A stretch of 64,000 nucleotides of DNA from an uncultured virus (IMG/VR IMGVR_UViG_3300020577_009925) (Duplodnaviria; Heunggongvirae; Uroviricota; Caudoviricetes), in the IMG/VR virus record IMGVR_UViG_3300020577_009925, one strand, 5' to 3'. A program made the translations under genes and the position numbers. The first letter of the stretch is position 1. Each line of letters opens with the position of its first letter. A model generated the notes under the pieces. The model was not told where the DNA came from. It was given only the letters and a program-made list of their open reading frames with translations, and did no database searches. Shown here piece by piece: positions 1,664 to 63,694 of this stretch.

Positions 1664-2305
1664 TCACTCGATAGTAATTAACTGGAGCTCTTCAACAGTC
1701 GTGGCAGATTCGATGCGAGACAACAGCTCGTCCCACTTCTGGCGGAGGCTGTTGTACTTAGCGTAGAACACTCCAATACAGCTCGCGATCTCCTGAGCTG
1801 GGATAACCACCGTCTTATCGTTGACGTCATCCAGCGACAGCGCTGTCTGAGTTTGAATGGCAAAGTTGGCAGCAACGCCCATAGCTCCAATCGAACCGCG
1901 ATCCATAGCTAAAACCACGCCAGGTTTGACTTCAATGCCGGGGATGTTGTCCCACCAGGAATTAAGCTCCTTGAGCTTTAGCCTGGACGCCGAATTGAAT
2001 GCTGCTCGCTCGGCATCCTCAGTTGAGGTGAATGGAACCTCCTGAATTAGCGCTAAGGCGTCAGGTCGCAACGCCTCAGGTATCGCTGATTCAAAACTAC
2101 CACGGCTGATGTAACTGCCAAACGCGACAGCTGCGGTCTTGACGTCCTCGGCAGTCAATGGAGTCAGCGAAGCAAACAGCTCGCTCAGTGAGTTATTGCC
2201 AATGACGATGTAATCAGGCGGAAACTCGATTGGTCCGACAAAGAATCGAAGGGGATCAATTCCAGACCGCACCGCAACGAAATACTCTTCACATCTACCG
2301 TTCAT
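1664..2305 (-). CDS. Putative tail fibre assembly chaperone, paralog of 7269..8000
   Basis: C-terminal helical motif ...WDELLSRIESATTVEELQLITIE is typical of fibre chaperones; directly downstream of an adhesin gene. Confidence 0.55.
   Translation of the reverse strand: MNGRCEEYFVAVRSGIDPLRFFVGPIEFPPDYIVIGNNSLSELFASLTPLTAEDVKTAAVAFGSYISRGSFESAIPEALRPDALALIQEVPFTSTEDAERAAFNSASRLKLKELNSWWDNIPGIEVKPGVVLAMDRGSIGAMGVAANFAIQTQTALSLDDVNDKTVVIPAQEIASCIGVFYAKYNSLRQKWDELLSRIESATTVEELQLITIE
1836..1847 (-). repeat. Dispersed palindrome GACAGCGCTGTC, copy 1 (in CDS)
   Basis: gc-GACAGCGCTGTC-tga. Confidence 0.9.
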
Positions 2306-2314
2306 TTTGAATCC

Positions 2315-5300
2315 TTAGTAAGTTCCATCGCGGACTAGACCTTCCGCGAGCAAGTTGTCTTTAGCGATAACGCCCGCCCCAGACCGATTAACGTCTAAAT
2401 GGGCATTGGTGAGGATGCCGCTGTAGTCCAGTCGCATTCCAGCGCCACTGTTGTAGGTGTCAAGCTCGATCAAATACTGATCTATGGCTACTGCAGTCAG
2501 ATTTGTACCTGTGAACGTTGTCCTGGACTCCTTGACACCTGTGTTATAGCGGAACAGGTCTGGCGGCAAGGTCGTCAATGAGGTGCAGCCGTTAAAGGTC
2601 CCGAAAAAGGCGACGTTGACTAGGTTGACATTGTATTGGAACAATCCAGCGGGTATCGATGCCAGCGATGTGCAGCCTTGGAAAGTATTGGTAAACCCTG
2701 ACGAAATAGTCGTCTGATAACGAAACAGTCCCGCAGGTATCGTTACCAAACTTGTGCAGCCGGCGAATGTCGTGTTTAGTGCCGCAGTACTAAAGCCCGC
2801 ATTGAATTTGAATAAGTCCTCAGGGATGCTAACGAGCGACGTGCAACCTTGAAATGTGGCTGCGAATGCCGAAGCTCCAGTTAGTCCAGTCTGCCTGGAG
2901 AACAGCTCCACTGGAATCGACGTTATAGAGGTGCAGTTTGAGAACGTTCCAGCCATTGACGCACTCAACACGTTAACGTTGTACTTGAATAGATCTGGCG
3001 GTATGGCAATTAAACGAGAACACCCTCTGAACGTGTTTTGAAACGCCTGCGTTGTGACGGCGACGTTGTACCGAAACAGATCTGTCGGTATCGTTAACAG
3101 AGATGTGCAGCCATTAAACGTGTTCTGGAACGCGGTAGTAGTCACACCAACGTTGTACTTGAACAAGTCTTGTGGAATGCCAGTCAATCTAGAACAGCCA
3201 TTAAATGTATGCTGAAACGCGGTAGTCGCGACGGCAATATTGTAGCGGAATAGGTCCTCTGGGATCGCAGCCAAAAACGTGCAACCTCTAAACGTACCAC
3301 TGAACGCAGTTGTGGTCACCGCAACATTGCGTCTGAACAGGTCAGCCGGTATCGACGCCAGCGACGTGCAGCCTTGAAAAGTGCTCAGGAATGCTGTGGT
3401 ACTGACTAGCAAGTTGAACGAGAACAGTGTTGACGGTATCGACTGAATCGAAGTGCAGTCTTGAAATGTCTGCTGAAACGCGCCGGTGGATACCAACAAT
3501 TGATTCCTGAACAGGTTAGCAGGTATTGCGGTTAAACCGGTGCAACCTTGGAACGTGCGAAAGAAAGCTGATGTTGTCAGCTTCACGTTGGCAGCGAACA
3601 GGTTTTCAGGAATTGCCGTCAGGCCTGTACATCCTTGGAATGTGCCGCTGAATGCCGAGGCAACGAGGTTAACGTGAGTTGCGAACAAGCTCACTGGGAT
3701 GCTCGTTAGTCCAATGCAATCTTGGAATGTGCCAGTGAATGCGGTATCGGTTAACAGAGTCTGAAAGTTAAACAACGTCGGTGGGATTGATGTCAGCCCA
3801 GCACAACCCATGAACGTACTATTAAAAGCTGGGGTAGTCATTGCTGTGTTGTACCGGAAAGTATCAACTGGAATAGAGATGATGCCAGTTCGCTCAAACG
3901 TTGTCTGAAATGAGCCACTAGAAACCGCGGTGTTGAATCGGAACAGATCAACTGGAATAGTTGTAATCGCCGAGCAGCCAGAAAACGTCCCTACAAATGC
4001 TGAAGCGGCGATCGACGTGTTGAAGTTGAACATGCCAGTCGGAATGCTCGTGATCGATGTACAGTCGGCAAACGTACGGGTGAACGCCGAACCAGTAACG
4101 GCGGTGTTGTAACGAAATAAGTCGATAGGAATGCTGGTTATACCGGAGCATTTTTCAAATGTTGACCTGAATGCGGCAAACGCGACAGCAGTGTTGTAAC
4201 GGAAGATATCAACCGGAATCGATGTAAGGCCGGTGCAGTTAAAGAATGTACTGTCGAACGCAGTATCGCCAGCACTAGTGTTATACCTGAAGAGATCTAC
4301 TGGTATCGACGTAAGACTCGTACAGCCGTTGAAGGTGCTTGAAAATGGCTGGATTGTGATTCCAGTATTGTACTGGAACAAGTCGGCTGGGATTGCAGCT
4401 AGAGCGGTGCAACCGGCGAACGTACCGTTGAATGCAACCTGAGTCAGTGAAGTATTGTATCTAAACAGGTCTGGCGGCAAAGCTGTAATACCAGTACACC
4501 CTCTGAACGTGTTTTGAAACGCCTGTGTTGTGAGACCAGTGTTGTACCGAAAGACGTCAACTGGGATCGACGTAAGGCCGGTACATCCCTGAAACGTCGC
4601 TTGAAAAGCATTGTTAGTGAGACCAGTGTTGTACCGAAAGATGTCAACTGGGATCGACGTAAGGCCAGTACAATTCTGAAATGTGTTGACAAACACTATG
4701 GCGTTGACTGCGGTGTTGTATCGGAAGATGTCAACTGGGATAGCCGTTAATCCAGTACAACCAAAAAACGTACTGGAGAACGCCGTACCAGTGATTCCAG
4801 TGTTGTACTGAAATATACTTGCTGGAATCGCCGTGATGCCTGTGCAGTTTTGAAACGTGGCTTGAAACGCACTTGTCGTGAGGCCGGTGTTGTAGCGGAA
4901 GATATCAACTGGAATACTTGTTAGACCAACACAGCCGCTAAATGTCGCTTGAAAAGCATTGCTAGTAAGACCAGTGTTGTAGCGGAAGATATCAACTGGA
5001 ATACTTGTTAGACCGACGCAACCAGCAAAGGTGTTGTTAAACGCGGTGGAGCTAATTGCAGTGTTGAATCTGAATAGATCCACAGGTATCGACGTCAATC
5101 CGCTAGATCCAAATGTCGATGTAAACGCGTCCGCGCTCACCGAAGTGCAGCTCTGAAACAGTGTTGCTGGAACGCTTCGCAGCGCACTGCAGCCAGAAAA
5201 CGTTGATGCAAACGCGTTGGCGGTGATTGAGGTATTGTACTGAAACAAACTTGCTGGGACTGTCTTCAATGCGACGCACGACTGAAACGTCGTGCCAAAC

Positions 5301-6814
5301 GCGTTGGTTGTGATAGCAGTGTTGTATCTGAACAGGTCAACAGGTAGGTCCTCCAAAAGCGTGCACTGCGAAAACGTCGAAGTGAATGCGGCGGTACTAA
5401 CTGCAGTGTTGTATCTGAACAGGTCAACAGGTAGGTCCTCCAAAAGCGTGCACTGCGAAAACGTCGAAGTGAATGCGGCGGTACTAACTGCAGTGTTGTA
5501 TCTAAATAGATCAGCCGGGACTGATTGTAGCTTCCCACAGCCAAAGAATGTGTTACCGAAAGCATTAGTGCTAACAGCAGTGTTGTACTGAAACAGCGAG
5601 GCCGGTATTGCAGTTATGCCGGTCCCTCTAAATGTGGTTGAGAACGCTGTTGTGTTAATACCCGTGTTGTAACGGAACAAATCCGCTGGAATACTTGTGA
5701 TGCTTGTACAACCCTGAAACGTTGACGTAAATGCATTACTCGTAATTGCGGTGTTGAACCTGAACAGATCAACCGGTATCGCGGTCAGATTAAAACAGTT
5801 CAGGAATGTGCTACCAAACGCACCTGTCGAAATCGAAGTGTTGAACCTGAACAGATCAGTAGGAATCGCCGTCAAATTACTGCAATTACCAAAGGTATTT
5901 GTAAACGCTGACGTTGTTACACCAGTGTTGTAATCAAACAGGTTGTTGGGAATCGTCTTCAGCCTGGTGCAAACAGAGAACGTCCCGTTGAACGCGCTAG
6001 AACTAACCGCCGTGTTGTATCGAAACAGATCCGGCGGAATCTCAGTCAAAGACGTGCAGCCGTTAAACGTACTTGTGAACGCAGTGAGTGTAATTGCAGT
6101 GTTGTATCGAAACAGATCCGGCGGAATCTCAGTCAAAGACGTGCAGCCGTTAAACGTACTTGTGAACGCAGTGAGTGTAATTGCAGTGTTGTATCGAAAC
6201 AGATCCGGCGGAATCTCAGTCAAAGACGTGCAGCCGTTAAACGTACTTGTGAACGCACTGGCTGTGACGGCGGTGTTGTAACGGAACAAGTCTGCTGGGA
6301 TAGATCGCAAGTTTCCACAGTTAGCAAACGTTGATGTGAACGCGTTGGTGGTTAATCCTGTGTTTTTCCAAAACAACTTCGCTGGGATCGTCTTCAAGCT
6401 TGCGCAGTTGGCGAATGTCGATGTAAATCCGTTTGTAGCTGGAATTGATGACGGGAATCGACAACCCTCGTCAATCTCCAAAAGCCTGGTGCAGCCTTGC
6501 CAACTGATAGCAGTGATTCCAGCTAGATCGCAGTTCCAGATCTTAGTAACCAACAGCGCACTGCCTGTACCAGCGAATAAGTGCTGCGTGCAGGTGCCAC
6601 GAATGATGATTCGGTAGGTGCCAGTTGCCGCATACGTGTGCGAAGCCGCTGCGCTGTTCCAAACAGTGACAGTCGTTGTTGGCGTGCCGTCGCCCCAATC
6701 AACCTGACAGTTATAAGTTCCGCCAGCTGTCAGTGGTAGGGTGAACACCGTACCTGCAGCTACGGTTACGTCGTAAGCAAGCATGTTTGGATAGGATTGA
6801 CCGACAGCTTGCAT
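2315..6814 (-). CDS. Giant BspA/TpLRR-like leucine-rich-repeat adhesin or receptor-binding protein with N-terminal PKD-like domain
   Basis: N-terminal VDWGDG...SHTYAATGTY (PKD-like), then about 46 repeats of ~29 aa (CTxLTxIPxDLFRYNTxxxxxAFxxTFxG). Confidence 0.8.
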   Translation of the reverse strand: MQAVGQSYPNMLAYDVTVAAGTVFTLPLTAGGTYNCQVDWGDGTPTTTVTVWNSAAASHTYAATGTYRIIIRGTCTQHLFAGTGSALLVTKIWNCDLAGITAISWQGCTRLLEIDEGCRFPSSIPATNGFTSTFANCASLKTIPAKLFWKNTGLTTNAFTSTFANCGNLRSIPADLFRYNTAVTASAFTSTFNGCTSLTEIPPDLFRYNTAITLTAFTSTFNGCTSLTEIPPDLFRYNTAITLTAFTSTFNGCTSLTEIPPDLFRYNTAVSSSAFNGTFSVCTRLKTIPNNLFDYNTGVTTSAFTNTFGNCSNLTAIPTDLFRFNTSISTGAFGSTFLNCFNLTAIPVDLFRFNTAITSNAFTSTFQGCTSITSIPADLFRYNTGINTTAFSTTFRGTGITAIPASLFQYNTAVSTNAFGNTFFGCGKLQSVPADLFRYNTAVSTAAFTSTFSQCTLLEDLPVDLFRYNTAVSTAAFTSTFSQCTLLEDLPVDLFRYNTAITTNAFGTTFQSCVALKTVPASLFQYNTSITANAFASTFSGCSALRSVPATLFQSCTSVSADAFTSTFGSSGLTSIPVDLFRFNTAISSTAFNNTFAGCVGLTSIPVDIFRYNTGLTSNAFQATFSGCVGLTSIPVDIFRYNTGLTTSAFQATFQNCTGITAIPASIFQYNTGITGTAFSSTFFGCTGLTAIPVDIFRYNTAVNAIVFVNTFQNCTGLTSIPVDIFRYNTGLTNNAFQATFQGCTGLTSIPVDVFRYNTGLTTQAFQNTFRGCTGITALPPDLFRYNTSLTQVAFNGTFAGCTALAAIPADLFQYNTGITIQPFSSTFNGCTSLTSIPVDLFRYNTSAGDTAFDSTFFNCTGLTSIPVDIFRYNTAVAFAAFRSTFEKCSGITSIPIDLFRYNTAVTGSAFTRTFADCTSITSIPTGMFNFNTSIAASAFVGTFSGCSAITTIPVDLFRFNTAVSSGSFQTTFERTGIISIPVDTFRYNTAMTTPAFNSTFMGCAGLTSIPPTLFNFQTLLTDTAFTGTFQDCIGLTSIPVSLFATHVNLVASAFSGTFQGCTGLTAIPENLFAANVKLTTSAFFRTFQGCTGLTAIPANLFRNQLLVSTGAFQQTFQDCTSIQSIPSTLFSFNLLVSTTAFLSTFQGCTSLASIPADLFRRNVAVTTTAFSGTFRGCTFLAAIPEDLFRYNIAVATTAFQHTFNGCSRLTGIPQDLFKYNVGVTTTAFQNTFNGCTSLLTIPTDLFRYNVAVTTQAFQNTFRGCSRLIAIPPDLFKYNVNVLSASMAGTFSNCTSITSIPVELFSRQTGLTGASAFAATFQGCTSLVSIPEDLFKFNAGFSTAALNTTFAGCTSLVTIPAGLFRYQTTISSGFTNTFQGCTSLASIPAGLFQYNVNLVNVAFFGTFNGCTSLTTLPPDLFRYNTGVKESRTTFTGTNLTAVAIDQYLIELDTYNSGAGMRLDYSGILTNAHLDVNRSGAGVIAKDNLLAEGLVRDGTY
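5316..5503. repeat. Exact 87-bp tandem duplication inside LRR gene
   Basis: gcagtgttgtatctgaacaggtcaacagg... repeated with 87-bp period (5316, 5403, partial 5490). Confidence 0.9.
6012..6257. repeat. Exact 87-bp tandem triplication inside LRR gene
   Basis: gtgttgtatcgaaacagatccggcggaatctcagtcaaagacg... at 6012, 6099 and 6186. Confidence 0.9.
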
Positions 6815-7251: not shown

Positions 7252-7268
7252 TTGATTCTCCGCGATGG

Positions 7269-8000
7269 TTAGCTGATTTCAATTGCTCTGAGTGCTTCGA
7301 CAGTTGTTGCGGCCTCGATCTGAGCGAGCAGCTCATCCCATCGGGCGCGGAGCTCATTGAGCTTAATGTAGAACGTGCCAATTGACTCTTGGATCTTCGA
7401 CACTGGGATGATGACCGTCTTGTCATTGACGTCGTCAAGCGATAGGTCAATATTCATATTATCAGCAACATTGGCAGCTGCAGCCATGGCTCCGATCGAC
7501 GCCTTATCCATCGGAAGAACAATGCCAGATTGGACCTCGATGCCAGGGTGATTGTCCCACCAGGAATTGAGCAAGGCGAGTTTCTTGGCTCGCAACTCTG
7601 CGAGCGTCAGTTTGATCTCGCTATTGAACGCTGGTAATCGCTTAGCTGCAATTTCAACTTTAGGTACAAGAACAGTGGCGATCTCAACCTCGTCTATCAA
7701 GACAGGTGAATCGCCACCTGGCACTGGAGACAACAGCGAGTCAAGTGCCAGCTGGGCTTCGGCAGAGATCGCTGACCGAAACTCCGCTTCAGACATTTTA
7801 GGCGCAAACAGCACTAGCAGTCGTTCGATGTTTGAAGTGATATCAAACCCGAAACCAATCAGTGCTGCAACCAGATCAGCAAAGGCCGTGTAGGTCGTGG
7901 CTGCGTAAATATCGGTGTTGTAAGTACACTCGCCTGAAAACGGCACAGTACTCGTGGATGACTTAAGAATCCCGAAAGTCGCTTCAATCTTGCTGTTCAT
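7269..8000 (-). CDS. Putative tail fibre assembly chaperone, paralog of 1664..2305
   Basis: Shared C-terminal ~90 aa (LNSWWDNxPGIEV...LSLDDVNDKTV...WDELL...ATTVE). Confidence 0.55.
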   Translation of the reverse strand: MNSKIEATFGILKSSTSTVPFSGECTYNTDIYAATTYTAFADLVAALIGFGFDITSNIERLLVLFAPKMSEAEFRSAISAEAQLALDSLLSPVPGGDSPVLIDEVEIATVLVPKVEIAAKRLPAFNSEIKLTLAELRAKKLALLNSWWDNHPGIEVQSGIVLPMDKASIGAMAAAANVADNMNIDLSLDDVNDKTVIIPVSKIQESIGTFYIKLNELRARWDELLAQIEAATTVEALRAIEIS

Positions 8001-9796
8001 TATGTGTAGCTTCCTGAGATGGTCCAGCCTTTTGTGACCAGGTTATTCTTCGCGGTTAACGCCGCCGCGCTTCGCTCTGAATCTTTAGCCATGACTGCGA
8101 GACTCAGCGGGTCCCACATCCAACCATTAGGATCTAACTTGTTGTAGTTCAAACTACCAACGGCTGGTCCGTGTTGATCGAGCCAAATCAAAAAGCTGTC
8201 GATCTCCGCATCAGAAGCATCGAGGGTCACGTAATAGTCGGTAAACGGTAATGCAGTCGAGTTGAAAATGAAGTACAACCACTGTCTGGATATAATGCCA
8301 GAAGGTTCAGCTTGCTGAAAGTCAGTTACGGCTGTACCGAGGTCTGTGCCAATCTTTCCTAAAGTCATAAATGCCCACCCCAGCTCAGGTACAAATCGAG
8401 ACATCGCTATGTTCGAGTACCCGCTTACCTGACCACTACCTAAGAATCCCCGCATATCTGTCACTAGTGGGGCTTTAATATCCGCTACAAACAATTCCCC
8501 GACACCTAAGAACATCGTGTCCATGTATAGCGCAGCCGGTAGTCGAAGCGATCGAACTACCGCACGACGTATACCAGCAAACGCCGCAGTAGCGTTAGTA
8601 ACCAAGCTTAGAGTTCGGTTATCCATGCTTAGACTCAAGTTTCGACAGTACATGGCGAAAAAGCTTATGTCAGTGAAGACGTCGTTGTAGTAAATGCACC
8701 AAGCTATTCTGTCAGATGCCACGTAACACTCCTGGAACATCCTAGACAGGTTAGTTGCCTTTGTCGGTGGATCAGTAGTGTAACCCCAATTAAGAAGCTC
8801 AAACGTACCAGCTCTGCAGAATGCAAACATCGACCAACAGTTCAAAAGCTCTGGACCTTTGAACGTATGCAGCGGGAACTTACCATTCACGCAATACATG
8901 AACATCTCACTTCCGTCGGTCGCGAGCGGGAGATTCAATTCAAGTAGAGGAAACAGCCCTTTACCGCAGTTGTAAAACATACCTGCGACGTTTGTAGCTG
9001 CCGGCGTAAACACCGATGTGATGTTAAACTCACCAATCGAGCAGCTCCTGAACATGTAGTTCGCATTAACAATGTTGTTGACTTTGATTGAAGTGAACGT
9101 GGTTTTTGCAGCGTTGCAAAATCGCCACATGCCCGAGGCGTCAGTCATGCCAAAACCGTCTAGATCGACCACATCGATGGAGACGACTTTCGTTCGATCG
9201 CCTGCGCCATTAAACGCGAATCGCTTAAGCGACGTTCCAACAATATTGATTGCGTGCGTGCCCGCCGCTGCATAGGTATGAACTAACGAGCCAGCTTGCG
9301 TTGTCAGCGTTCCGTCACCCCAGTCAACCGTGTAGGCGTCAGCAGGGTCGGAGGTAATAGGTAGAGTAAAGGTCTCGTTTGCAGTCGTCGTAGCAACTTG
9401 AAAAGCGATGCGACCAACCGATGTAGTTGAGATGGTCTGCTTTGAGACTACAGTTACACTCGTACCCTTTAACGTCAGCGAAACACCCTCTCCTGGCAAA
9501 ACTGAAATTCGCGATGAGCCGTCAGAGAACGTATGGCCCGCACCTGGAGTGAGTACTGCGATAGAGCTCCCAGTGTTGTGATAACTGACTAGTTGTTTCT
9601 CGACTCCTGCGAACGCAACTGTTGTCGGGGCACTGCCAGTGATATCGTTCACCACTACAGCATCTAGACTCGTTGGCGGTGAAAGCTTCCATCGGTACTT
9701 GCCATTGGCAGCGTCGATGACGGCCTCGATCTGATAGCCGTTGTATGTGTCACCAACAACACCATTAGGTGCGTTAAAGTTTGCAAGTGCTACCAC
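8000..9796 (-). CDS. PKD + BspA-like repeat adhesin/receptor-binding protein
   Basis: VDWGDG/HTYAAAG PKD-like motif, degenerate xMFxxC repeats, C-terminal AKNNLVTKGW cap. Confidence 0.65.
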   Translation of the reverse strand: MVALANFNAPNGVVGDTYNGYQIEAVIDAANGKYRWKLSPPTSLDAVVVNDITGSAPTTVAFAGVEKQLVSYHNTGSSIAVLTPGAGHTFSDGSSRISVLPGEGVSLTLKGTSVTVVSKQTISTTSVGRIAFQVATTTANETFTLPITSDPADAYTVDWGDGTLTTQAGSLVHTYAAAGTHAINIVGTSLKRFAFNGAGDRTKVVSIDVVDLDGFGMTDASGMWRFCNAAKTTFTSIKVNNIVNANYMFRSCSIGEFNITSVFTPAATNVAGMFYNCGKGLFPLLELNLPLATDGSEMFMYCVNGKFPLHTFKGPELLNCWSMFAFCRAGTFELLNWGYTTDPPTKATNLSRMFQECYVASDRIAWCIYYNDVFTDISFFAMYCRNLSLSMDNRTLSLVTNATAAFAGIRRAVVRSLRLPAALYMDTMFLGVGELFVADIKAPLVTDMRGFLGSGQVSGYSNIAMSRFVPELGWAFMTLGKIGTDLGTAVTDFQQAEPSGIISRQWLYFIFNSTALPFTDYYVTLDASDAEIDSFLIWLDQHGPAVGSLNYNKLDPNGWMWDPLSLAVMAKDSERSAAALTAKNNLVTKGWTISGSYT

Positions 9797-9797
9797 G

Positions 9798-15543: not shown

Positions 15544-16239
15544 CTAGTTAGTATTGAACTTGATATTGAGGTATCGCAGCGGCATGCCGCCGGTAACGAT
15601 TTGAACTACGTCCGTGTACTGTAGGTCAGCCACAATCGGCACGGCAAAAAAGTTAGGAAATTCTCGAAGCCTTCCTACCTCCCCTGCTTGACTAACGTTG
15701 AGCACGTTGAGGTCGTACTCTTTGCGAATCACATGACTAAAGTGCGACAGCAGCTGCTCACATTCAGCTCCCAGGTGATCGGCCTGTCCGGCATCACGGC
15801 TCATGGCAAACGTGACGACGCTGAAGGCATAGGAGTGCAGAAATAGGTTTCCAGGAGCACGACGATTGACCGCAGGTGCCATCATCCGGCTATCGCCAAT
15901 GCCGAGCTTGTTCTTGGCTACGGCCCCACGGCGAATGAGTATCTTGGGCAAATCGGTAAGGTTGTCGCCTAAGTACTCGTCGAGCCTTCCGATTTCAACC
16001 ATGTCTGGAAAATCGGCCTCAGTTGGAACTGGCGTTGGCGGAACTTGCTGGTCCCCTTGAGGATCGACGTAGCGAAGGTGAGCCACCGACGGCATCCAGC
16101 GATGATCAGGACCTGGGGGAAGCGAGAAGTACTGCTTGAACAGCGACGACCAGACCGTTGGCATCTGAACGTATCGAACAGCGATTGGGCAGGCTGTCTG
16201 ATCTGGATCGGGAGTTGAATTAAGAACCTTTTCGGCCAT
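15544..16239 (-). CDS. Putative tail completion/terminator protein
   Basis: Position just upstream of the sheath; LPKILIRRG motif. Confidence 0.4.
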   Translation of the reverse strand: MAEKVLNSTPDPDQTACPIAVRYVQMPTVWSSLFKQYFSLPPGPDHRWMPSVAHLRYVDPQGDQQVPPTPVPTEADFPDMVEIGRLDEYLGDNLTDLPKILIRRGAVAKNKLGIGDSRMMAPAVNRRAPGNLFLHSYAFSVVTFAMSRDAGQADHLGAECEQLLSHFSHVIRKEYDLNVLNVSQAGEVGRLREFPNFFAVPIVADLQYTDVVQIVTGGMPLRYLNIKFNTN

Positions 16240-16438
16240 GTTGCCACCCGCCCATTCGCTCTAACGCTTCGTAAGGATTGGCTCCGTAATCAACGCCGTA
16301 CGTCGGAGTGATCGATAGCTCTTTGACTGGAGCTACAGATGCACCCGCAGACTTACAGCTTGGTTTTGCGACAGCGCTGTCTCGACGCTCTAGCTGAAGC
16401 TCAGGCCTTTGAAAGGACCAGTTCTTATTATCGCTCAT
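16220..16438 (-). CDS. Small hypothetical protein
   Basis: Overlaps both neighbours in operon fashion. Confidence 0.4.
   Translation of the reverse strand: MSDNKNWSFQRPELQLERRDSAVAKPSCKSAGASVAPVKELSITPTYGVDYGANPYEALERMGGWQHGRKGS
16370..16381 (-). repeat. Dispersed palindrome, copy 2 (in small CDS)
   Basis: gc-GACAGCGCTGTC-tcg. Confidence 0.95.
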
Positions 16439-17286: not shown

Positions 17287-17287
17287 G

Positions 17288-48549: not shown

Positions 48550-48583
48550 AAAAGAGGCTCTGGCCTCTTTTTTTAGCTACCAG
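48550..48583 (+). terminator. Terminator (possibly bidirectional) with TTTTTTTAGCTACCAG tail
   Basis: aaagaggc/gcctcttt stem between convergent genes. Confidence 0.75.
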
Positions 48584-49694: not shown

Positions 49695-49751
49695 GATTAA
49701 CCACTGCGACTGTAGGCTCGTAAGGTCCTCAGCATAACAAATAACCAACCC

Positions 49752-49788
49752 CTGATAGCTAAAAAAAAAAGCTACCTTGTGGGGCAGC
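49752..49788 (-). terminator. Terminator with T10-AGCTATCAG tail
   Basis: gctgcc/ggtagc stem, T10, then AGCTATCAG. Confidence 0.7.
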
Positions 49789-49797: not shown

Positions 49798-50124
49798 CTA
49801 GCGATCGATCCGCCGAGGTTTCCATGTTTCGCCGAATAGGCCTACATGGAACTCTAAATCACCAGGCTTCGCATTCTTTGGTCTAGCGATCTTAGCAATC
49901 CCAATATCAGTGAACTCGTAATCGGTCATCGACACTTTGATTGCCAGTGCTGAGTTCTCCAGCCAGCTGTTACCGGCAGGGCCCTCGATGTGATCCAGAT
50001 CGAACGCCGGCATCTTGCTTCGACCAATGGCGATGATTCCAACTATCAACAAAAGCATCAGGATCATTCCGCCACTGATACTAACCCCACCAATAACCAG
50101 AAATGCCTTTTTATTCTTGTCCAT
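49798..50124 (-). CDS. Small signal-anchor membrane protein
   Basis: Basic N-terminus followed by a long hydrophobic helix; AAGGA RBS. Confidence 0.65.
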   Translation of the reverse strand: MDKNKKAFLVIGGVSISGGMILMLLLIVGIIAIGRSKMPAFDLDHIEGPAGNSWLENSALAIKVSMTDYEFTDIGIAKIARPKNAKPGDLEFHVGLFGETWKPRRIDR

Positions 50125-50166
50125 CTTGGCTTCCTTCTCGGATTGAGTTTTGAATTCGCGTCAGGA

Positions 50167-50191
50167 TTAACGCGTTACACCTCATATAGCC
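50167..50191 (-). promoter_or_regulatory. Candidate phage promoter GGCTATATGA-N10-GTTAA
   Basis: Second copy of the motif at 48207. Confidence 0.4.
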
Positions 50192-50206
50192 CGTGATGGA
50201 CCTCGA

Positions 50207-50904: not shown

Positions 50905-50944
50905 CTGATAGCTAAAAAAGAGGTCCGGAATTAACCGGACCCCT
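50905..50944 (-). terminator. Terminator with T6-AGCTATCAG tail ending the accessory operon
   Basis: gtccgg/ccggac stem, T6, then AGCTATCAG. Confidence 0.75.
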
Positions 50945-50947
50945 GTT

Positions 50948-51595
50948 CTATTTCTGACCTACTGGAACCGTCAACAAAATCTTGTGAAGTCCCGCTGCGC
51001 ATCTAGAAACAAACCGTCGACAACCGTCGCTATCTGGCTCCCAAATCTCAACGTTCTCCAGCCAATGCGACTGTTGAAAACCTAACGCCTCAACAGCCTG
51101 TAAAGCCGTCTTGGCAATTGGTCCCCGTCGCAAGTAACACCCGACAAAGCAATGGGTGTAACGATTCTCATCCGCCACAACAAACTCGCCCTCTTTTGGA
51201 ATCCCAACGAGAACAAATGGAAACGTCGTAGCAACGCCCTCGTGGCTCATCGAAAGCGTGAGCTTGCTAAGAACTCTCTCGGCGTCGTCGATCCGAGTTT
51301 TAAGTTTCTTGGCGTAGTTACCCAAGATGTAGTGCAGGTCGTTTTTGTTTACGCACACTCGGTTGAGCCACAACTGCACGTCTTGAACGGCCCTGTTTCG
51401 ATGATTAGCAACAAATCGCGTTACAGCCCCATCCGCCAATCGATCCTTCCTAAACTCAAGTAGCCCTGGAAGGTCTCCTGGACAAGCGTCCAAAACGTGG
51501 ATGAGAAAGTCATCCTCTTCGAGCAACTCTTTGCAAACGATTGAATAGTCAACCACAGCTTGTTCCTTAATCAAACACAATGGTCGAGGCAACAT
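50948..51595 (-). CDS. Hypothetical protein (start uncertain)
   Basis: Co-oriented ORF. Confidence 0.5.
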   Translation of the reverse strand: MLPRPLCLIKEQAVVDYSIVCKELLEEDDFLIHVLDACPGDLPGLLEFRKDRLADGAVTRFVANHRNRAVQDVQLWLNRVCVNKNDLHYILGNYAKKLKTRIDDAERVLSKLTLSMSHEGVATTFPFVLVGIPKEGEFVVADENRYTHCFVGCYLRRGPIAKTALQAVEALGFQQSHWLENVEIWEPDSDGCRRFVSRCAAGLHKILLTVPVGQK

Positions 51596-53720
51596 CGCCT
51601 TGACACCACTTACGGATTAGCTCCTGCTGGTTCTGCAGTCCCAATGCCCAGACCACATACTTGGTTTGGTAATCAACTGCACCCCTTCCAACTGGAATGC
51701 TAACAGTCACATCAGCCACTGTACCAGGTGTAGCTTTGAGTGAGTGCCCGAAACCGTACATTTGCTTCATGCCGTGAAGCTTGAAGTAAATGTATTGACT
51801 AAGCACTGTCGGCCTCTTGACACGGAAGCATGTCCGGTCGCGGCTGACCAAAAACGGCTCAGTATGATACTCCAAGTTTGCTCCAGCACTCCCGTCACCG
51901 TTGGCGGCAAAAGAAATAACTGGCTCACTGGTGCTCGCACGAATAAGCTTCTCAGCAATCACACTGGTGTCGACTCGCTGGGCGTCGATATACGCCAAGA
52001 TATCCTTGCCCGCACTGTAAAGCGGATAACCATCACTAGGTCGCACGCATCGCATGCCCCACCAAACAGTCTTAGCCCAGCCAGTCTTGTGATGGATGAA
52101 CTCAAAGTACTCGTCGTCGCCCAGGCATACGTCCTGAAACTCCAACTTTTTACCGTCTGGTTTCTGAGACAGCGCTGTCGTTCTGATGACATCCGTCAGT
52201 TTCCTGACCGCATCCGGATACTCCGAGGCGGCAATTGTTGGACTGTCGTCGACAACGTCTAGCTGTCGCAGCTCGTCCATAGTCCAGAATCGCTGCGGCG
52301 ACCAATCACCCTCTAGGAATCTTTGAGCCGGCACAACCTTGACGCCTGCGCTACATGGGGTCAGGCCCTCGTAGTACCAGCTATTAAACGCCTGCACCAC
52401 ACGAGAAAGATCATTTCGATCGATCGGAAGTCGATACAGATCGCGACTCTCGCCAATCTCCGCCACAACAGCGGTGAACACTGGGCTGGTTTGTACTCTT
52501 GGCTCAAGTCCAACCTTCTTGCTGACGATCAGAATGCACGTCTTCTTGTCCGTGGCGTAGAACGTTCGCGGCGGCAAGGCAATCACGCCGTTAACCTCCA
52601 CTCGCTGCGATAACTGCTCAAGATACTTAGTCTGCAGCAGCAGCCCATCAGGAACTACAACAATCGCCTGTCCACCTGGGGCTAAATGTTCGGCGATCCA
52701 GTCCATAGCTAGAGCTTCAGTGCCTCGGCCGTGATGACTGTAAAAGGCATCGATCTCACCGGCCTCGAGGGATTCGCGAACTACGGCCGACCCCCGGTAG
52801 TTGTAAGGAGGATTAGACACAATGAGGTCAAACCGCATCGCTGGGAATTCGCCGAAAGTTCCCAGCGGCGTGCGGACGAGCTTGAACATGCTATGCGCAA
52901 GAGCTCCGAGTGAGGCAATCGATTCTTTATTGACATGACTAGCCAGATGAACGGCCAGATTGAACTTGGCCATCGCAATGGTTTGGTAGTCATCAGAATC
53001 TTCGCCGCCTCGATCCATGCCAAACAGCGAGATCTTCGGCAAGAACGTCGGACCCTTGGGCGTGTAATCGGCTTTGGCGACCTCCGAGCGACTGAGCGTC
53101 TCAAGAAGTAGTCCGCCAACGCCGCAAAACGGATCACATACTTTGTACTTCTGACCCGCTTTGAACAGCTTCACGCACGACATGTCGAGCATAGCTCTAA
53201 CTACAACCCGCGGGGTGAAGAACTGACCCAGCAAACGACTCTCAGCACTTTGCCTGAGGAACATCTCGTAAAGTCTTGACTTGTCGTAGTCGCCGTCACT
53301 AAACCAGTTGGGCGGCACTTCTTTGAGCTGGACGATCAACTGAGCAAACAGCGGAGCATGCACAATACTAGGCCCGTCAGGACCAACAAACAGCGACTGC
53401 TCTGACACAATCGCTTCACCAATGATGCTACGACCAAAACAATCGATCATCTCTGGTCGGCACTTGCGAACATAGTGCGTCAGCGCCGCTGTTTGTGAGC
53501 TTTCCAGGTGCTCACGCACTGAATCGAAGTTGCAGTACTTACCCAGAACCTTGGTGTCACTGAGAAACCGAAAGAGCATCAGCTCCATCACGTTGTACAG
53601 GCATTTCTGCGGCTGTTTGCCTGTGTGCTCCCAAATCACTTGCCACAACGATTTAGCCCAACTCTCCATCCGTCCGTCACCTTGCCATCCGCGATTCGAA
53701 ATGTGGCCACTAATTCCCAC
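51567..53720 (-). CDS. N6-adenine DNA methyltransferase (HsdM/type IIG-like) with fused specificity-like C-terminal domain
   Basis: GQFFTP, DPFCGVGG (SAM binding), SNPPY (catalytic), VVPDG; C-terminal TRD-like region. Confidence 0.85.
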   Translation of the reverse strand: MGISGHISNRGWQGDGRMESWAKSLWQVIWEHTGKQPQKCLYNVMELMLFRFLSDTKVLGKYCNFDSVREHLESSQTAALTHYVRKCRPEMIDCFGRSIIGEAIVSEQSLFVGPDGPSIVHAPLFAQLIVQLKEVPPNWFSDGDYDKSRLYEMFLRQSAESRLLGQFFTPRVVVRAMLDMSCVKLFKAGQKYKVCDPFCGVGGLLLETLSRSEVAKADYTPKGPTFLPKISLFGMDRGGEDSDDYQTIAMAKFNLAVHLASHVNKESIASLGALAHSMFKLVRTPLGTFGEFPAMRFDLIVSNPPYNYRGSAVVRESLEAGEIDAFYSHHGRGTEALAMDWIAEHLAPGGQAIVVVPDGLLLQTKYLEQLSQRVEVNGVIALPPRTFYATDKKTCILIVSKKVGLEPRVQTSPVFTAVVAEIGESRDLYRLPIDRNDLSRVVQAFNSWYYEGLTPCSAGVKVVPAQRFLEGDWSPQRFWTMDELRQLDVVDDSPTIAASEYPDAVRKLTDVIRTTALSQKPDGKKLEFQDVCLGDDEYFEFIHHKTGWAKTVWWGMRCVRPSDGYPLYSAGKDILAYIDAQRVDTSVIAEKLIRASTSEPVISFAANGDGSAGANLEYHTEPFLVSRDRTCFRVKRPTVLSQYIYFKLHGMKQMYGFGHSLKATPGTVADVTVSIPVGRGAVDYQTKYVVWALGLQNQQELIRKWCQGDVASTIVFD
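52168..52179 (+). repeat. Dispersed palindrome, copy 8 (in MTase linker)
   Basis: tga-GACAGCGCTGTC-gt. Confidence 0.95.
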
Positions 53721-54757: not shown

Positions 54758-55128
54758 CAGCGGCTCTCTTTCTCAGTTTTATGCGGCTCTTCTCCGGCTC
54801 TACTTTTCGCAACCGCCATCTGGGCAACGACCTGACCGAGTTGGCGAATTTGCACCTCATACACGTCAAGAATCCCCATCAGCTGAAGCTGCAGCGAGTT
54901 GCTTCGCTTAACACTGGTTGCGTAGCAGCCGATGATAAACAGCAAGAACGCAATCGCCGCTGTTGAAGCCCATGTCGCCAGCGACTCACCTTTGACGATT
55001 TGACCTACAGTTGTCAGCCCTTCAAACGTCCCGGCCGCAACCGTCACCATAATGACAAAGTTCTGTGCTGCACCGTCAATCGCTAGCCGTCTGCGAACTC
55101 GAGTTGAAATTGGTTTTGGCATCTCCAT
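54757..55128 (-). CDS. Two-TM membrane protein
   Basis: Two hydrophobic segments. Confidence 0.55.
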   Translation of the reverse strand: MEMPKPISTRVRRRLAIDGAAQNFVIMVTVAAGTFEGLTTVGQIVKGESLATWASTAAIAFLLFIIGCYATSVKRSNSLQLQLMGILDVYEVQIRQLGQVVAQMAVAKSRAGEEPHKTEKESR

Positions 55129-55152
55129 AAAACTTTCCTATGTCTAAAGTTG

Positions 55153-55488
55153 TTAACCTTCTAGTTCAATCCCCAACATCTTGGCGTACTTATCGTAGTC
55201 AATGTCCGCGGCCACGTAAGGCAGTATGACCTCGAAAAAGCTCTTCAACGGCAGCGGCCAGCAGTCCACGATCTCGAAAAAGATCAGTGCCGCCAGCAAC
55301 ATCGCGTCTTTAGCGGCAGGCAGATCCTTTGCTACCTCCGCCTTGAAAAGCAGAATCGCCTCTTGAGAGCGTACGTGGGTGCAGCTGAACTGCTCTCCGC
55401 CGTCTTCGACGAAGAATCCATAAAACACTTGCGGGGGCTCATGGAATCCTGCGAAGTAAACCTGCTCACTGGCGTAATAAGCCTGCAT
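55153..55488 (-). CDS. Hypothetical protein
   Basis: Co-oriented ORF. Confidence 0.55.
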   Translation of the reverse strand: MQAYYASEQVYFAGFHEPPQVFYGFFVEDGGEQFSCTHVRSQEAILLFKAEVAKDLPAAKDAMLLAALIFFEIVDCWPLPLKSFFEVILPYVAADIDYDKYAKMLGIELEG

Positions 55489-55514
55489 GTCACGTTCTTT
55501 CGTTTTAAGTTTGA

Positions 55515-55526
55515 GACAGCGCTGTC
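55515..55526 (+). repeat. Dispersed palindrome, copy 9 (intergenic)
   Basis: tga-GACAGCGCTGTC-gc. Confidence 0.95.
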
Positions 55527-55527
55527 G

Positions 55528-56028
55528 CTAAGCAGATAGCTCTCTACCAACAATCAGCTGCCCGTCGCGGACTAGCACATAGTAAAGAGGCGACCAGCCA
55601 TTATGCTTGAGGAAGTTTCTGAAATCACCATACTTGATGACCATACTGCGATACTCCTCAAACGGCGATGGACAAATCACCTTGGCGGCGTACTCAACGT
55701 CCTCAACACTCAGTGATCCGACTTCCCGCTTAACGGTGAACCCAGTTCCGATTCTCTGATGTGGAACGTGCTTGGTGCTCAAGGTGAATCCCCAAATATT
55801 TAGCTCCACGTAAGCGAAGTTGCCGTCTTTGTGAGCCTGGAAATAGCGGGACTTACCAAAGGGCGGCTTTCGCCAAAACACGTCCCAGCCTGCAGCGATC
55901 AGCTCCTTAGCCAAGCTGTCTAACTCAGGCTCTTCGAATAGCTGCGTAGCGCGAGCTGCAACTTCTTCATCCGTCAAATCCCTAGTCGGATCTCTGTAGA
56001 ACTTATCGTCAGGTGGTTGTTGGCTCAT
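55528..56028 (-). CDS. Hypothetical protein
   Basis: Co-oriented ORF overlapping its neighbour. Confidence 0.55.
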   Translation of the reverse strand: MSQQPPDDKFYRDPTRDLTDEEVAARATQLFEEPELDSLAKELIAAGWDVFWRKPPFGKSRYFQAHKDGNFAYVELNIWGFTLSTKHVPHQRIGTGFTVKREVGSLSVEDVEYAAKVICPSPFEEYRSMVIKYGDFRNFLKHNGWSPLYYVLVRDGQLIVGRELSA

Positions 56029-56434
56029 TTGTGCTCTCGCCTTGCGTAGAACCGCCTCGAAACTTCGCCTGCAGCTCCACGTACTCTTTGATCATCGGGA
56101 TAATTGCCTCACGATCTTTGTCAGTCATGAACTGCATTGTCATGAACATCGGATATCCGTTGATGGCTCTGGGACCAGCCTGATTAACGTACTCGTAAAT
56201 ACCGCCGATATTTCGTGGCAACTGCGCTGGACCACAAAAGGACAGCGGCAAGAATACCAGTCGCACTGTTGCGTCGTCGTCAACTTGCCAATCTCCAAAG
56301 ATCTTTCCTTCAACCATCTCAATGGCCAGCTGTCGTAGTTCCGCCTCACTCTTGTCTGGTTGAGGTGGCCCCATCTTGTTTAACCGCTCTTCCAGCTTTT
56401 GCTCGTCAGTTAGCTCTACCGTTTCCTCACTCAT
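56009..56434 (-). CDS. Hypothetical protein
   Basis: GGAG RBS; IYEYxxQAGPRAINGYPMF motif. Confidence 0.6.
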   Translation of the reverse strand: MSEETVELTDEQKLEERLNKMGPPQPDKSEAELRQLAIEMVEGKIFGDWQVDDDATVRLVFLPLSFCGPAQLPRNIGGIYEYVNQAGPRAINGYPMFMTMQFMTDKDREAIIPMIKEYVELQAKFRGGSTQGESTNEPTTT

Positions 56435-56651
56435 TTAGATTCTCCTGTGCAACTCGCGGCGGCTGCTCTATTAGTCTGTCACTCGACACATACATCTGAT
56501 AAAGGCCCTCACTGAAACAAACTCCCCAAGAAGATTGCACCAACACTGGAGCCCCGTCGCCTACCGTACCCACTAGGATCTCCACCCACAGGTAGATGCC
56601 GTAGACATGATCCCAAAGCATCCACTGAGGTTTACGCCTACTCGGACTCAC
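56427..56651 (-). CDS. Small hypothetical protein
   Basis: 4-nt overlap coupling with the upstream gene. Confidence 0.4.
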   Translation of the reverse strand: MSPSRRKPQWMLWDHVYGIYLWVEILVGTVGDGAPVLVQSSWGVCFSEGLYQMYVSSDRLIEQPPRVAQENLNE

Positions 56652-56905
56652 TCAACCTCATCCGCGTCAAATGCCGTAGCCTCTATGCCTGGCTCATTGG
56701 CCTTGGACTTCTCAAGAACCTCGTAAGTCCGATCAGTTACTCCTTGGCTAGTCTGATCAGACTCTTCACCGTCGCCTATCCACCGATGAGCCGCACCCTT
56801 CGCTGCTGAAAGTTCACCGGAGGCAGTAACGTCGTAAATTCGAGTTTCGACAATCGTTTCGATGATCTTGACCTGGAATGTCCTGAGCTCGCGTTTCTTA
56901 GCCAC
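56648..56905 (-). CDS. Small acidic hypothetical protein
   Basis: GTG at 56905 overlaps the upstream stop. Confidence 0.5.
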   Translation of the reverse strand: MAKKRELRTFQVKIIETIVETRIYDVTASGELSAAKGAAHRWIGDGEESDQTSQGVTDRTYEVLEKSKANEPGIEATAFDADEVE

Positions 56906-57797
56906 CGAGCTTATCTCCAGGATCGAGACCGTGAACGAGTCCAACACAACCACCGCTGTTGGGCATCACCTTTACTCCGCTGGAATCAATCGAAGCTACC
57001 CAAGCTTCAATCTCGCCTTTCTCCGCAGCCAAACCAATGTGCAGTACATCCTTAGTCATTCCGAGGACAACGTAATTGCCGTTTGGAAGTTCAATTGCAG
57101 TGCCCTCATTAGAGATATGGTGAATCTGCACATAGTCACCTTGCGGATGAATCACTGGAGCAACAGGTAGCTTGGTGATCGAACCACCGTAATTCTCAAC
57201 CATCTTTCGAGCGTGAGCGAGGATCTTGTAGTAGTCGACGTCGTAAGGGATTCGCTTAAGCCACTCAAGACAAACATCAGAATGTGCTCCCCGTTTTTGA
57301 CCTTCGACGGTGTTATTGGTCAACAACATCGACACCGCATACGACACACCCTCAAGCACGAACTCAAAGCCCTGTGCGTTGTCGCTACGAAGTTCGTTGT
57401 CATAATGCTCGTTGATGAAGTAGCACTGCTGGGCGATCACCTGCGCCAGCTGCTCGTCATTCCACTTAAGAGGATTCGCGTCCTCAGGTGGGAAGTCTGG
57501 GTCTTCAGGACAGTAAATATCCACCCCGAGCTTCTCCCATCGCCGAGCCAATAGCTCGATCTCCTCAGCGTCTCTATGAACATCCATCCCATGAAGCTCA
57601 AGCATTGCCGCGGCCTCACCGTTACCCCGGATGGCCTGCAGTCTCACCTGGTGAACCGCGTCGTCGTCACTCATCGTATCTGGAGCCGTCTCATCACACT
57701 TCTGAATCCGCAGCTTACCACTATCTGTGCAGAACAGATCTGCGTGATATGGGTGAAGTGCGATGAACGCTTTGATCACTCGTTTTTTCTTTGCCAT
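56898..57797 (-). CDS. Hypothetical protein
   Basis: 299-aa co-oriented ORF. Confidence 0.6.
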   Translation of the reverse strand: MAKKKRVIKAFIALHPYHADLFCTDSGKLRIQKCDETAPDTMSDDDAVHQVRLQAIRGNGEAAAMLELHGMDVHRDAEEIELLARRWEKLGVDIYCPEDPDFPPEDANPLKWNDEQLAQVIAQQCYFINEHYDNELRSDNAQGFEFVLEGVSYAVSMLLTNNTVEGQKRGAHSDVCLEWLKRIPYDVDYYKILAHARKMVENYGGSITKLPVAPVIHPQGDYVQIHHISNEGTAIELPNGNYVVLGMTKDVLHIGLAAEKGEIEAWVASIDSSGVKVMPNSGGCVGLVHGLDPGDKLGG

Positions 57798-59424: not shown

Positions 59425-59570
59425 CGTACTCTCCTAATTGAAGCGATTGCAGACTCCGGACATCCCTCGGTCTTCATGGTTAGCTCAACTGCACTAGCGA
59501 TCGAACGAGCCCATAACGTCAGAAAACACTCGCCACGGTCATGCCTGAGCAGGACCTTGTACTTGTTCAT
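59421..59570 (-). CDS. Small hypothetical protein
   Basis: AGGAG RBS before ATG 59570 (MNKYKV...). Confidence 0.5.
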   Translation of the reverse strand: MNKYKVLLRHDRGECFLTLWARSIASAVELTMKTEGCPESAIASIRRVR

Positions 59571-59597
59571 GGAAACTCTCCTAGATAGGTAAACGCA

Positions 59598-59628
59598 AAG
59601 AGCCGGGCACTTGTGATGCCCGGCTCTT
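59598..59628 (-). terminator. Strong hairpin / terminator
   Basis: 12-bp stem aagagccgggca/tgcccggctctt. Confidence 0.6.
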
Positions 59629-59659
59629 CTATTAGTCAATCGACGCGTTTAACTACAAT

Positions 59660-60187: not shown

Positions 60188-60190
60188 GCA

Positions 60191-60934: not shown

Positions 60935-60969
60935 CGAATTCCCTTTGTTAAGTAACAAGGGCGGGTTGA

Positions 60970-60981
60970 GACAGCGCTGTC
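60970..60981 (+). repeat. Dispersed palindrome, copy 10 (intergenic, within a 30-bp extended inverted repeat)
   Basis: gcgggttga-GACAGCGCTGTC-gcaacccgc. Confidence 0.95.
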
Positions 60982-61029
60982 GCAACCCGCTCACTTGCTT
61001 CTGGACCGCCTGTGGCGACCATCCGTTTG

Positions 61030-62993: not shown

Positions 62994-63190
62994 TCTCGCA
63001 TGAACCCCAGAAAGTAATGTTCCTTGGCGGGCCCAAGTCTAAACGATGCAGACGGACTGCCGCAGATCTCTTGAGCCTCCTCCAATGTATACGTCTCTTC
63101 TCCGAATCGCTCCCGCGGCTTGCCAGACTCGGGCGACCAGAACTTCATGATGATGTAGCGGTCCTCTTCGTCTTCATCGTAGTCACTCAT
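62990..63190 (-). CDS. Small hypothetical protein
   Basis: ATG 63190 (MSDYDE...), YTLEEAQEIC motif. Confidence 0.5.
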   Translation of the reverse strand: MSDYDEDEEDRYIIMKFWSPESGKPRERFGEETYTLEEAQEICGSPSASFRLGPAKEHYFLGFMRE

Positions 63191-63662
63191 CGCTGGTATC
63201 CACTTGATGCAATGACTGTTCCTCCAAAAATGTCCGCACGTGTGCAGGTCCATACTTTGCGGACAGCGCTACTGCTGTCACCATCGCGAGTACCGCATCG
63301 GGATCTTCCCACTCAGTGGACTCCCACATGCAGACCTCACCCTCGCCGTCGATAACGTGCACCGATTCATGGGTCGTGAAAACCCCTGGAACCAACTCAT
63401 GCAGGCCGTTAATGAACTCCCATACCTCAGGGTCAGTAACAATGACCACATTCTTCGTGCTGAGGTAGTTAACGATATCCGTCTGCATCTGGCCTGCAGC
63501 GTGGGCATCAACAACCAGGGAGCTATGCAAGCATTCCATCAAACCTGAGTTGATAGCTACAACGTGCCCCGTTGATGTTGGGTAAGTCTTGACCTCAACT
63601 CGCTTGATCCCGTCATCAACCATCTGATCGAGCATCAGACAAATGTGATTGGCTAGTGCCAT
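63183..63662 (-). CDS. Hypothetical protein
   Basis: AGGAG RBS. Confidence 0.6.
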   Translation of the reverse strand: MALANHICLMLDQMVDDGIKRVEVKTYPTSTGHVVAINSGLMECLHSSLVVDAHAAGQMQTDIVNYLSTKNVVIVTDPEVWEFINGLHELVPGVFTTHESVHVIDGEGEVCMWESTEWEDPDAVLAMVTAVALSAKYGPAHVRTFLEEQSLHQVDTSDE

Positions 63663-63677
63663 AGATTCTCCTATTGC

Positions 63678-63689
63678 GACAGCGCTGTC
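63678..63689 (-). repeat. Dispersed palindrome, copy 11 (intergenic)
   Basis: ttgc-GACAGCGCTGTC-tca. Confidence 0.95.
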
Positions 63690-63694
63690 TCACG

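Follow-up and report, generated by a model that had tools for sequence, protein, structure and literature searches.

Arrays of short binding sites on mobile genomes are known and are normally bound by a protein that the element itself encodes. Here we describe an array that, judged by its sequence, departs from this pattern in its word, which is the operator of a host sugar repressor. It consists of twelve near-identical copies of a 17-base word in a 64,000-nucleotide stretch of DNA from an uncultured virus of the Caudoviricetes (IMG/VR record IMGVR_UViG_3300020577_009925), the whole of which we call the window. The sites with which it bears comparison are those of ParB-family proteins, the stoperators of mycobacteriophages, the NtcA sites of cyanophages, engineered decoy arrays, and the operators of the Pseudomonas repressor GntR.

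The IncP plasmid RK2 has 12 OB sites, and the stoperators of cluster A mycobacteriophages (L5, Bxb1, TipsytheTRex) are oriented with transcription. On RK2, the ParB-family protein KorB is a CTP-dependent sliding clamp that is loaded at OB sites and travels along the DNA to promoters far away, a single global protein acting at a distance (PMC11790492). As in the window, the OB sites described in that work are short palindromes placed around a mobile genome of ~60 kb, some of them far from promoters (PMC11790492), and the trait common to the ParB-parS and KorB-OB systems, several near-identical palindromes of 13-16 bp on one replicon that are tolerated in genes, is present in the phage. The OB core sequence differs, however, KorB acts with KorA and IncC, and no ParB-family gene was found in the window. 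Stoperators, described as "numerous binding sites distributed across the phage genome" that block elongation (PMC9283540), likewise comprise many near-identical sites in genes and gaps, but they are asymmetric 13-14-mers bound by a monomer, whereas the core of the phage word is a perfect palindrome whose orientation relative to the co-directional genes is 7:5, without pattern.

A precedent for sites of a host metabolic regulator scattered over lytic phage genomes comes from T4-like cyanophages, in which 1-16 NtcA sites per genome were read as exploiting the host nutrient signal (PMC3037559). As presented there, NtcA is an activator with a loose GTA-N8-TAC site that was called only in intergenic promoters, whereas the phage word would be a repressor operator of ~30 bits that is mostly intragenic. 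In synthetic decoy or "DNA sponge" arrays, as reported in two studies, repeated high-affinity sites titrate a regulator and shift the expression of its regulon (PMC7826281, PMC7686491); unlike the phage array, these are engineered tandem arrays. Our literature search returned no report of a natural phage-borne dispersed decoy or of a dense array of host-repressor operators, which is not proof of absence.

The 12-bp palindrome at the core of the array, GACAGCGCTGTC, occurs exactly at positions 1836, 16370, 24051, 30133, 37170, 41678, 48585, 52168, 55515, 60970 and 63678, and the twelfth copy, with one mismatch, is at 46013; a first-pass annotation, made from the letters alone, had placed all twelve correctly. 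Allowing up to one mismatch, there are 12 matches in the window, as compared with a mean of 0.24 and a maximum of 2 in 100 dinucleotide-preserving shuffles of it. The array consensus is YGAGACAGCGCTGTCGC, and aligned in a single orientation the copies read YYGAGACAGCGCTGTCGC, with information at background level beyond ~18 bp. Relaxing a 16-mer search to three mismatches adds only three weak sites (12006, 32858 and 45696); the motif family is sharply bounded, with no surrounding cloud of degenerate copies. It is the only over-represented family of dispersed k-mers in the window, where the other repeats are confined to 87-bp coding ones in a tail-fibre gene. In its full extent, the phage site forms a CG-centred palindrome of 16 bp whose symmetry is broken at a single fixed position: at the seventh base from the centre, all twelve copies have A in one half (GAGACAGC) and C in the other (GCGACAGC).

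The copies are spread more evenly than chance. From 16 kb onward, neighbouring copies are separated by 2572-7681 bp, which agrees with the spacing given in the first-pass annotation. For 12 random points, a smallest gap of at least 2572 bp has a probability of 0.0009, and a coefficient of variation of the spacing of at most 0.61 has a probability of 0.05. The density of the array in the window amounts to 172 copies per Mb.

A full-text literature search with the 12-mer led to GntR of P. plecoglossicida, a LacI-family gluconate repressor. The DNase footprints reported for this protein are CAAAGACAGCGCTGTCTCGACA, GCGAGACAGCGCTATCTTACCC and TAAGGTAGCGCTGTCTCAGGACAC, and the published motif is AG-N2-AGCGCT-N-TCT (PMC12195362); gluconate and 6-phosphogluconate are described as releasing the repressor in a review that covers P. 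aeruginosa (PMC5902321). On the strand concerned, all three footprints contain the half-site YGAGACAGC, which is the left half of the phage word. The GntR motif specifies 12 bases, of which 11 agree in eleven phage copies and 10 in the copy at 46013. The operators and the phage word share an identical 12-bp core, this half-site, and the form of a 16-bp palindrome centred on CG; compared with the Pseudomonas consensus GAGACAGCGCTGTCTC, 15 of 16 bases agree.

Within Pseudomonas, the 12-mer is widespread and rare per genome. It occurs in 117 of 151 genomes, a tally that includes the unpublished genome G100, at 0-5 copies each. A motif equally frequent in the host chromosome would, as noted in the first-pass annotation, have spoken against a role for the array; the 0-5 copies per 3.3-8.7 Mb in Pseudomonas, as against 11 in 64 kb, give no such picture, and none of the Pseudomonas genomes searched comes within a factor of 150 of the array in density. 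The Pseudomonas operators, moreover, stand at promoters, whereas the 12 phage sites are mostly intragenic. In a tally of 401 Pseudomonas genomes that includes the unpublished G375, 112 contain the 14-mer GAGACAGCGCTGTC, versus ~19 for a reversed control word; in an even class-wide sample, it occurs in only 7 of 401 genomes (2 of the 7 being Pseudomonas), versus 3 for the control.

In 26 of 30 Pseudomonas loci, the word marks genes of the glucose/gluconate regulon: OprB-family porin genes, where it lies at the start (16 loci), gntR-gnuK-gntP (6), gcd (3) and a gnd-like gene (1), with the remaining 4 loci elsewhere; in Pseudomonas sp. JUb42 (G001, via locus L064), the 12-mer is found four times, with two copies in gntR-gnuK-gntP, one upstream of gap and one elsewhere. 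We regard the word as the operator of the Pseudomonas glucose/gluconate regulon, in place of the mark of a "phage-specific" system proposed in the first-pass annotation, and the distribution suggests that, besides the gntR, gnuK and gntP already published, the GntR regulon takes in oprB, gcd and gnd. Dense arrays were not seen in other genomes: a scan with the 17-mer of 185,579 species genomes gave no bacterial contig with more than one copy among the best 80 of at least 120 stretches, and in IMG/VR the phage-type 16-mer has five single matches and the host-type perfect palindrome one, with no viral contig carrying an array.

The way in which the copies are accommodated in genes indicates what is conserved. 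By our calls of open reading frames (ORFs), eight exact copies lie inside ORFs and three in gaps, as had been proposed. The coding copies encode DSAV[SA] (24051, 41678 and 48585, with DGAVA at 46013) or xTALS (1836, 30133, 37170 and 52168). These are the two frames recognized previously; a third, encoding RQRCL, is used at 60970. This last copy falls in a GTG-extended ORF and is more likely to belong to a 5' untranslated region (5'-UTR) than to coding sequence, because a better ATG with a ribosome-binding site is found 32 nt downstream. Four copies are in 5'-UTR-like gaps and six are deep within genes. Among 20,348 translated residues, TALS occurs only at motif sites and DSAV once more, with other codons; given the codon usage of the phage, the probability that DSAV would be spelled with these four codons by chance is 0.0094 per copy.

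The encoded residues are not kept in relatives at 37-56% identity. The DSAVS of gene 40226-42592 is retained in a 92% identical relative and is EAGEH or EPGTH in 47% relatives, without an indel, while in gene 36563-37900 the motif lies in the most variable, indel-rich stretch, and TALS is found there in none of four relatives (37-56% identity). The two chaperone paralogues of the window are 40% identical, and where one reads QTALS the other, lacking the site as already observed in the first-pass annotation, reads NIDLS. Three of the 12 copies fall in non-coding DNA, which makes up 5.2% of the window (P=0.021); with the copy at 60970 counted, there are four (P=0.0025). The constant codons, the use of three frames, the residues not kept in relatives, the paralogue without a site and the over-dispersion therefore support the conclusion, reached earlier from fewer data, that selection on the array acts on DNA and not on protein; the codon, frame, relative, paralogue and non-coding data fit sites written where the cost is least. 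Together with the over-dispersion and a shared core without an RNA fold, this DNA-level selection supports an array of protein-binding sites as the right class.

We propose, with a probability of roughly 0.4, that the twelve sites are GntR-type (LacI-family) operators to which the host repressor binds and which serve as a decoy or as a roadblock gated by nutrients. The first-pass annotation had likewise seen an array of protein-binding sites, and this part of its interpretation is retained; the binder, which it attributed to a phage-specific system, may instead be a repressor of the host. The likeliest predicted binder is the host's own GntR dimer, because the window shows no LacI-family gene and phages hardly ever carry one. 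Neither LacI nor any other DNA-binding family was detected in the 60 main ORFs, or in a laxer Pfam re-scan of 35 of these ORFs plus two on the plus strand. True phage records are essentially free of LacI-family genes; the phage collection gave 102 LacI-like matches, which belong to short unannotated or bacterial entries, and a Pseudomonas phage is not among them.

On infection, GntR would bind the phage DNA. As a decoy, the few dozen strong sites per phage genome, multiplied by replication, would outnumber the 3-5 host operators, and GntR would be drawn off oprB, gcd, gntP, gnuK and gnd; the route from glucose through gluconate to 6-phosphogluconate would open, providing NADPH and pentose for phage DNA synthesis. 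As a sensor, GntR seated on the sites in 5'-UTRs and long genes would, when gluconate or 6-phosphogluconate is lacking, slow transcription, and phage development would be gated by the sugar supply of the host. The two consequences could coexist. The fuller version of the decoy, in which the array is a protein-free "auxiliary metabolic element" that titrates GntR and switches on the OprB porin, glucose dehydrogenase, gluconate permease, gluconokinase and 6-phosphogluconate dehydrogenase to feed the pentose-phosphate route for nucleotides, is in our estimation unlikely. If host GntR does bind, the phage would manipulate or read the central carbon regulation of its host through DNA sequence alone, a mechanism invisible to gene-based annotation of auxiliary metabolic functions; cyanophages reach a similar result with carried genes, where here DNA words alone would suffice.

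Several observations weigh against binding by host GntR and call for caution, above all because a fixed asymmetry and even spacing are not explained by a simple decoy for a symmetric dimer. At position 7 of the second half-site (...GTCGC on the top strand), all 12 phage copies have C, whereas Pseudomonas half-sites have A at this position in 64 of 74 cases and C in only 4; the phage site thus has a fixed G where the host operators have T. An asymmetry this strict is not accounted for by a symmetric GntR dimer, and a plain decoy does not predict that sites be evenly spaced. In addition, six copies lie deep in genes, which is not the usual place of action for a repressor and its operator, and unlike the GntR system the array has no cognate repressor gene beside its sites. 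The likeness to a known operator could also have arisen by chance, which we put, by judgement and not by computation, at 0.1-1% with flanks and taxon counted; this is conceivable because a CG-centred 12-bp palindrome has only 1024 forms and LacI-family motifs are many. GntR would be excluded as the binder if the phage shields its DNA from host proteins. Finally, parts of the window show little affinity to Pseudomonas: the TnpB is only 33-38% identical to the best Pseudomonas copies, the chaperone has no match in 301 Pseudomonas genomes, and the tail-fibre matches are to Klebsiella and Escherichia phages.

In favour of such a host, proteins of the window match those of Pseudomonas, Vibrio and Aeromonas phages, and related DNA comes from river, wastewater and sludge habitats, both of which are compatible with a pseudomonad. 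The motif by itself gives a prediction of the host of this phage lineage, namely a fluorescent pseudomonad. Whichever protein binds, the motif would in this way provide a host prediction for an uncultured lineage of river and wastewater metagenomes (8 studies).

The main alternative, quite possible although short of an even chance, is that the array serves a phage-encoded binder of the KorB/ParB or stoperator kind, encoded outside the window and acting in global silencing, partition or chromosome organisation, the likeness to GntR operators then being coincidental. Binding by an element-encoded protein is the established pattern for site arrays on mobile genomes, and the strict conservation over 17 bp and the near lack of degenerate copies speak for a dedicated binder that has a specificity of its own; the phage-specific base at +7 in 12 of 12 copies and the even spacing are also in keeping with such a protein. 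The array is furthermore lineage-specific, relatives at 37-56% identity lacking the encoded residues at both sites examined. However, ParB, KorB, SMC-loader, HTH and RHH families were not detected in the 60 ORFs or in the 37 scanned at a lax threshold, save for a weak sigma-70 region 4 match (37964-38929), and neither Pfam at that threshold nor the Atlas suggested anything for two small genes that come straight after intergenic copies. On this account, it must be put down to chance that the word agrees with a host operator at 15 of 16 bases, the 9-nt half-site among them, and the mixed orientation (7 versus 5) is unlike that of stoperators. We rejected the stoperator class itself, given this orientation on genes that run in the same direction; no repressor or integrase was found in the window. 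Should a phage protein be the binder, the array would belong to a new global system, akin to KorB or stoperators, in a very divergent phage that has a multisubunit RNA polymerase of its own.

A captured LacI-family homologue of GntR, located elsewhere in the phage genome and having the array as its regulon with a slightly shifted inherited specificity, would explain the likeness to host operators and the deviation at +7 together. The genome does extend past the window, an identical protein being encoded on a contig of 87,978 bases; nevertheless such a homologue is improbable in view of the scarcity of LacI-family genes in phage records, the lack of a close GntR relative in viral_contigs, and the asymmetry, which a symmetric dimer again leaves unexplained. 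We consider it quite improbable that the word is the target of a DNA enzyme, whether a site-specific nickase as in T5-type phages, a long-site methylase or nuclease, or a system of recombination or module exchange. The very strict conservation of the copies would suit such an enzyme, as would the two methylase genes and the LAGLIDADG intein in the window, and in population data described below, one contig of run X9 loses its likeness to the window at a copy (55511) and a variant of run X10 carries the half-word GCGACAGC near 50191. Yet recombination among 12 copies, in both orientations and within essential genes, would be destructive; methylases and restriction enzymes recognise much shorter sites; and just 1 of 14 loose contig ends falls at a copy, with a chance of ~0.1 by estimate. 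The inteins end 155-170 residues before the nearest copies (at residues 546 and ~550, with the copies at residues 701 and 721), and we rejected a link to inteins or homing on the same grounds.

Very improbable, in our view, is an element that works in RNA as a small transcript hairpin or terminator, even though all copies would be transcribed if the co-directional genes are. The copy at 60970 does lie in a strong hairpin between two genes (60955-60996 (-); -21.4 kcal/mol, z -4.0), being the only copy with extended symmetry, and the copy at 48585 precedes a terminator-like hairpin. Against this, four of five folded sites are no stabler than shuffled sequence (z -0.73 to +0.99), on which basis intrinsic terminators and structured RNA were rejected; the copies show sequence identity only, without covariation, their two orientations give different RNA flanks, and there is no match to an Rfam family.

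Other types of element were also considered and rejected. An insertion or mobile mini-repeat, such as a repetitive extragenic palindrome (REP), a miniature inverted-repeat transposable element (MITE) or a palindromic element inserted in frame as in Rickettsia, does not fit conservation that ends at ~18 bp and the lack of an indel relative to homologues of gene 40226-42592. A promoter for a phage RNA polymerase does not fit mixed orientation and 6-8 intragenic copies; a sigma-70 scan found fewer promoter-like sites than in shuffles, and none at a motif copy. A guide or target of a TnpB omega-RNA was dismissed, the copy at 24051 being ~146 nt past the tnpB stop codon, in the next gene, and the motif copies having no conserved flank on their GC side. 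An assembly artefact of one sample, a concern raised in the first-pass annotation, is ruled out by independent assemblies from four studies that cover 44-64 kb.

Individually, the copies are situated as follows. The copy at 1834-1850 (-) reads TCAGACAGCGCTGTCGC on the minus strand and lies in the tail-fibre chaperone gene 1664-2305, where it encodes QTALS. That at 16368-16384 (-) is in the 195 bp that separate genes 16435-17340 and 15544-16239, with the start codon of the downstream gene 131 nt further on. The copy at 24048-24064 (+) encodes DSAVS in the Pro-rich N-terminal part of the product of gene 23439-24161, and the one at 30130-30146 (+) encodes ATALS at residue 701 of the intein-bearing gene 29694-32246, 155 residues past the end of the intein. 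In gene 36563-37900, the copy at 37167-37183 (+) encodes PTALS and has G, not C, as its last base, and the copy at 41675-41691 (+) encodes DSAVS in gene 40226-42592. The copy with one mismatch, at 46011-46027 (-), is GAGACGGCGCTGTCGC on the minus strand and encodes DGAVA in the RNA polymerase beta'-like gene 45668-48184. DSAVA is encoded at 48583-48599 (-) in gene 48573-49748, 12 nt before the stop codon, by a copy to which the terminator-like hairpin is immediately adjacent on the downstream side. The 717-aa N6-adenine methylase gene 51567-53720 contains the copy at 52165-52181 (+), which encodes TTALS and ends in GT. The three remaining copies are at 55512-55528 (+), in a 39-bp gap upstream of gene 55153-55488; at 60967-60983 (+), on the tip of a 30-nt hairpin, with the likely ATG of a MazG-like gene 32 nt downstream; and at 63676-63692 (-), in a 32-bp gap, where the ribosome-binding site of gene 63183-63662 follows within a few bases.

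The phage to which the window belongs is large and very divergent. All substantial ORFs of the window are on the minus strand, and they include tail-fibre genes, an RNA polymerase beta'-like fragment, TnpB, two DNA methylases, a giant NUDIX/kinase protein and an AAA ATPase. The window DNA has no match among 50,697 phage records, and its protein matches are remote only: a 788-aa protein has none in the phage collection or viral_contigs, no phage match was found for ORF 2-1603, and those of ORF 8000-9796 are all weak. One metagenome scan for relatives gave only a contig of 1291 bp, without the site. Near-identical DNA, on the other hand, is present in runs from river, wastewater, activated sludge and digester metagenomes (8 studies).

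We compared the window with this population on assembled contigs in all runs; 40 of 800 differences are listed, and the conservation of the motif in diverged relatives covers one copy (55515, in run X9). A contig of that run spanning 54889-57129 (2241 nt) has exactly four differences from the window, all of them at 55490-55507, beside the copy at 55512-55528, which is itself unchanged despite the four adjacent substitutions. The same four substitutions occur in run X7. In a second X9 contig, the likeness to the window ends exactly at 55511, and in the X10 variant the half-word is part of a replaced intergenic segment, the window having no copy there. This intergenic region, 50026-50206, is a hot spot of variation: a stretch of 127 bp is replaced in X7, and contigs of X9 and X10 diverge at 50148-50191.

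Several other features of the window may be noted. The TnpB gene, 24211-25350 (-), is complete and of the IS605 type, with HTH_OrfB, OrfB_IS605 and Cas12f1-like TNB domains, and no TnpA is found nearby. Three genes on the minus strand bear inteins: 22107-23405 (-), which is papain-like and has a mini-intein with HNC at residue 208; 29694-32246 (-), encoding 850 aa with a LAGLIDADG intein at residues 175-546; and 45668-48184 (-), the RNA polymerase beta'-like fragment, with an intein at residues ~334-550. The 87-bp periodic coding repeats are those of a 1499-aa tail-fibre gene, 4188-6229 (-), which matches phrog_9915 and tail proteins of Klebsiella and Escherichia phages at 30-38% identity. Beside the polymerase-like genes, 37964-38929 (-) encodes a 321-aa protein, the one with the weak sigma-70 region 4 / HTH match (E 0.014-0.067), and its product may be a phage sigma-like factor. 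A second word, TTTTTAGCTA, follows terminator-like hairpins at three gene ends (48570-48579 (+), 49756-49765 (-) and 50909-50918 (-)); it has 3 exact copies in the window and 9 at up to one mismatch, compared with 2.65 expected, and may be a terminator or promoter junction word shared by genes of this phage.

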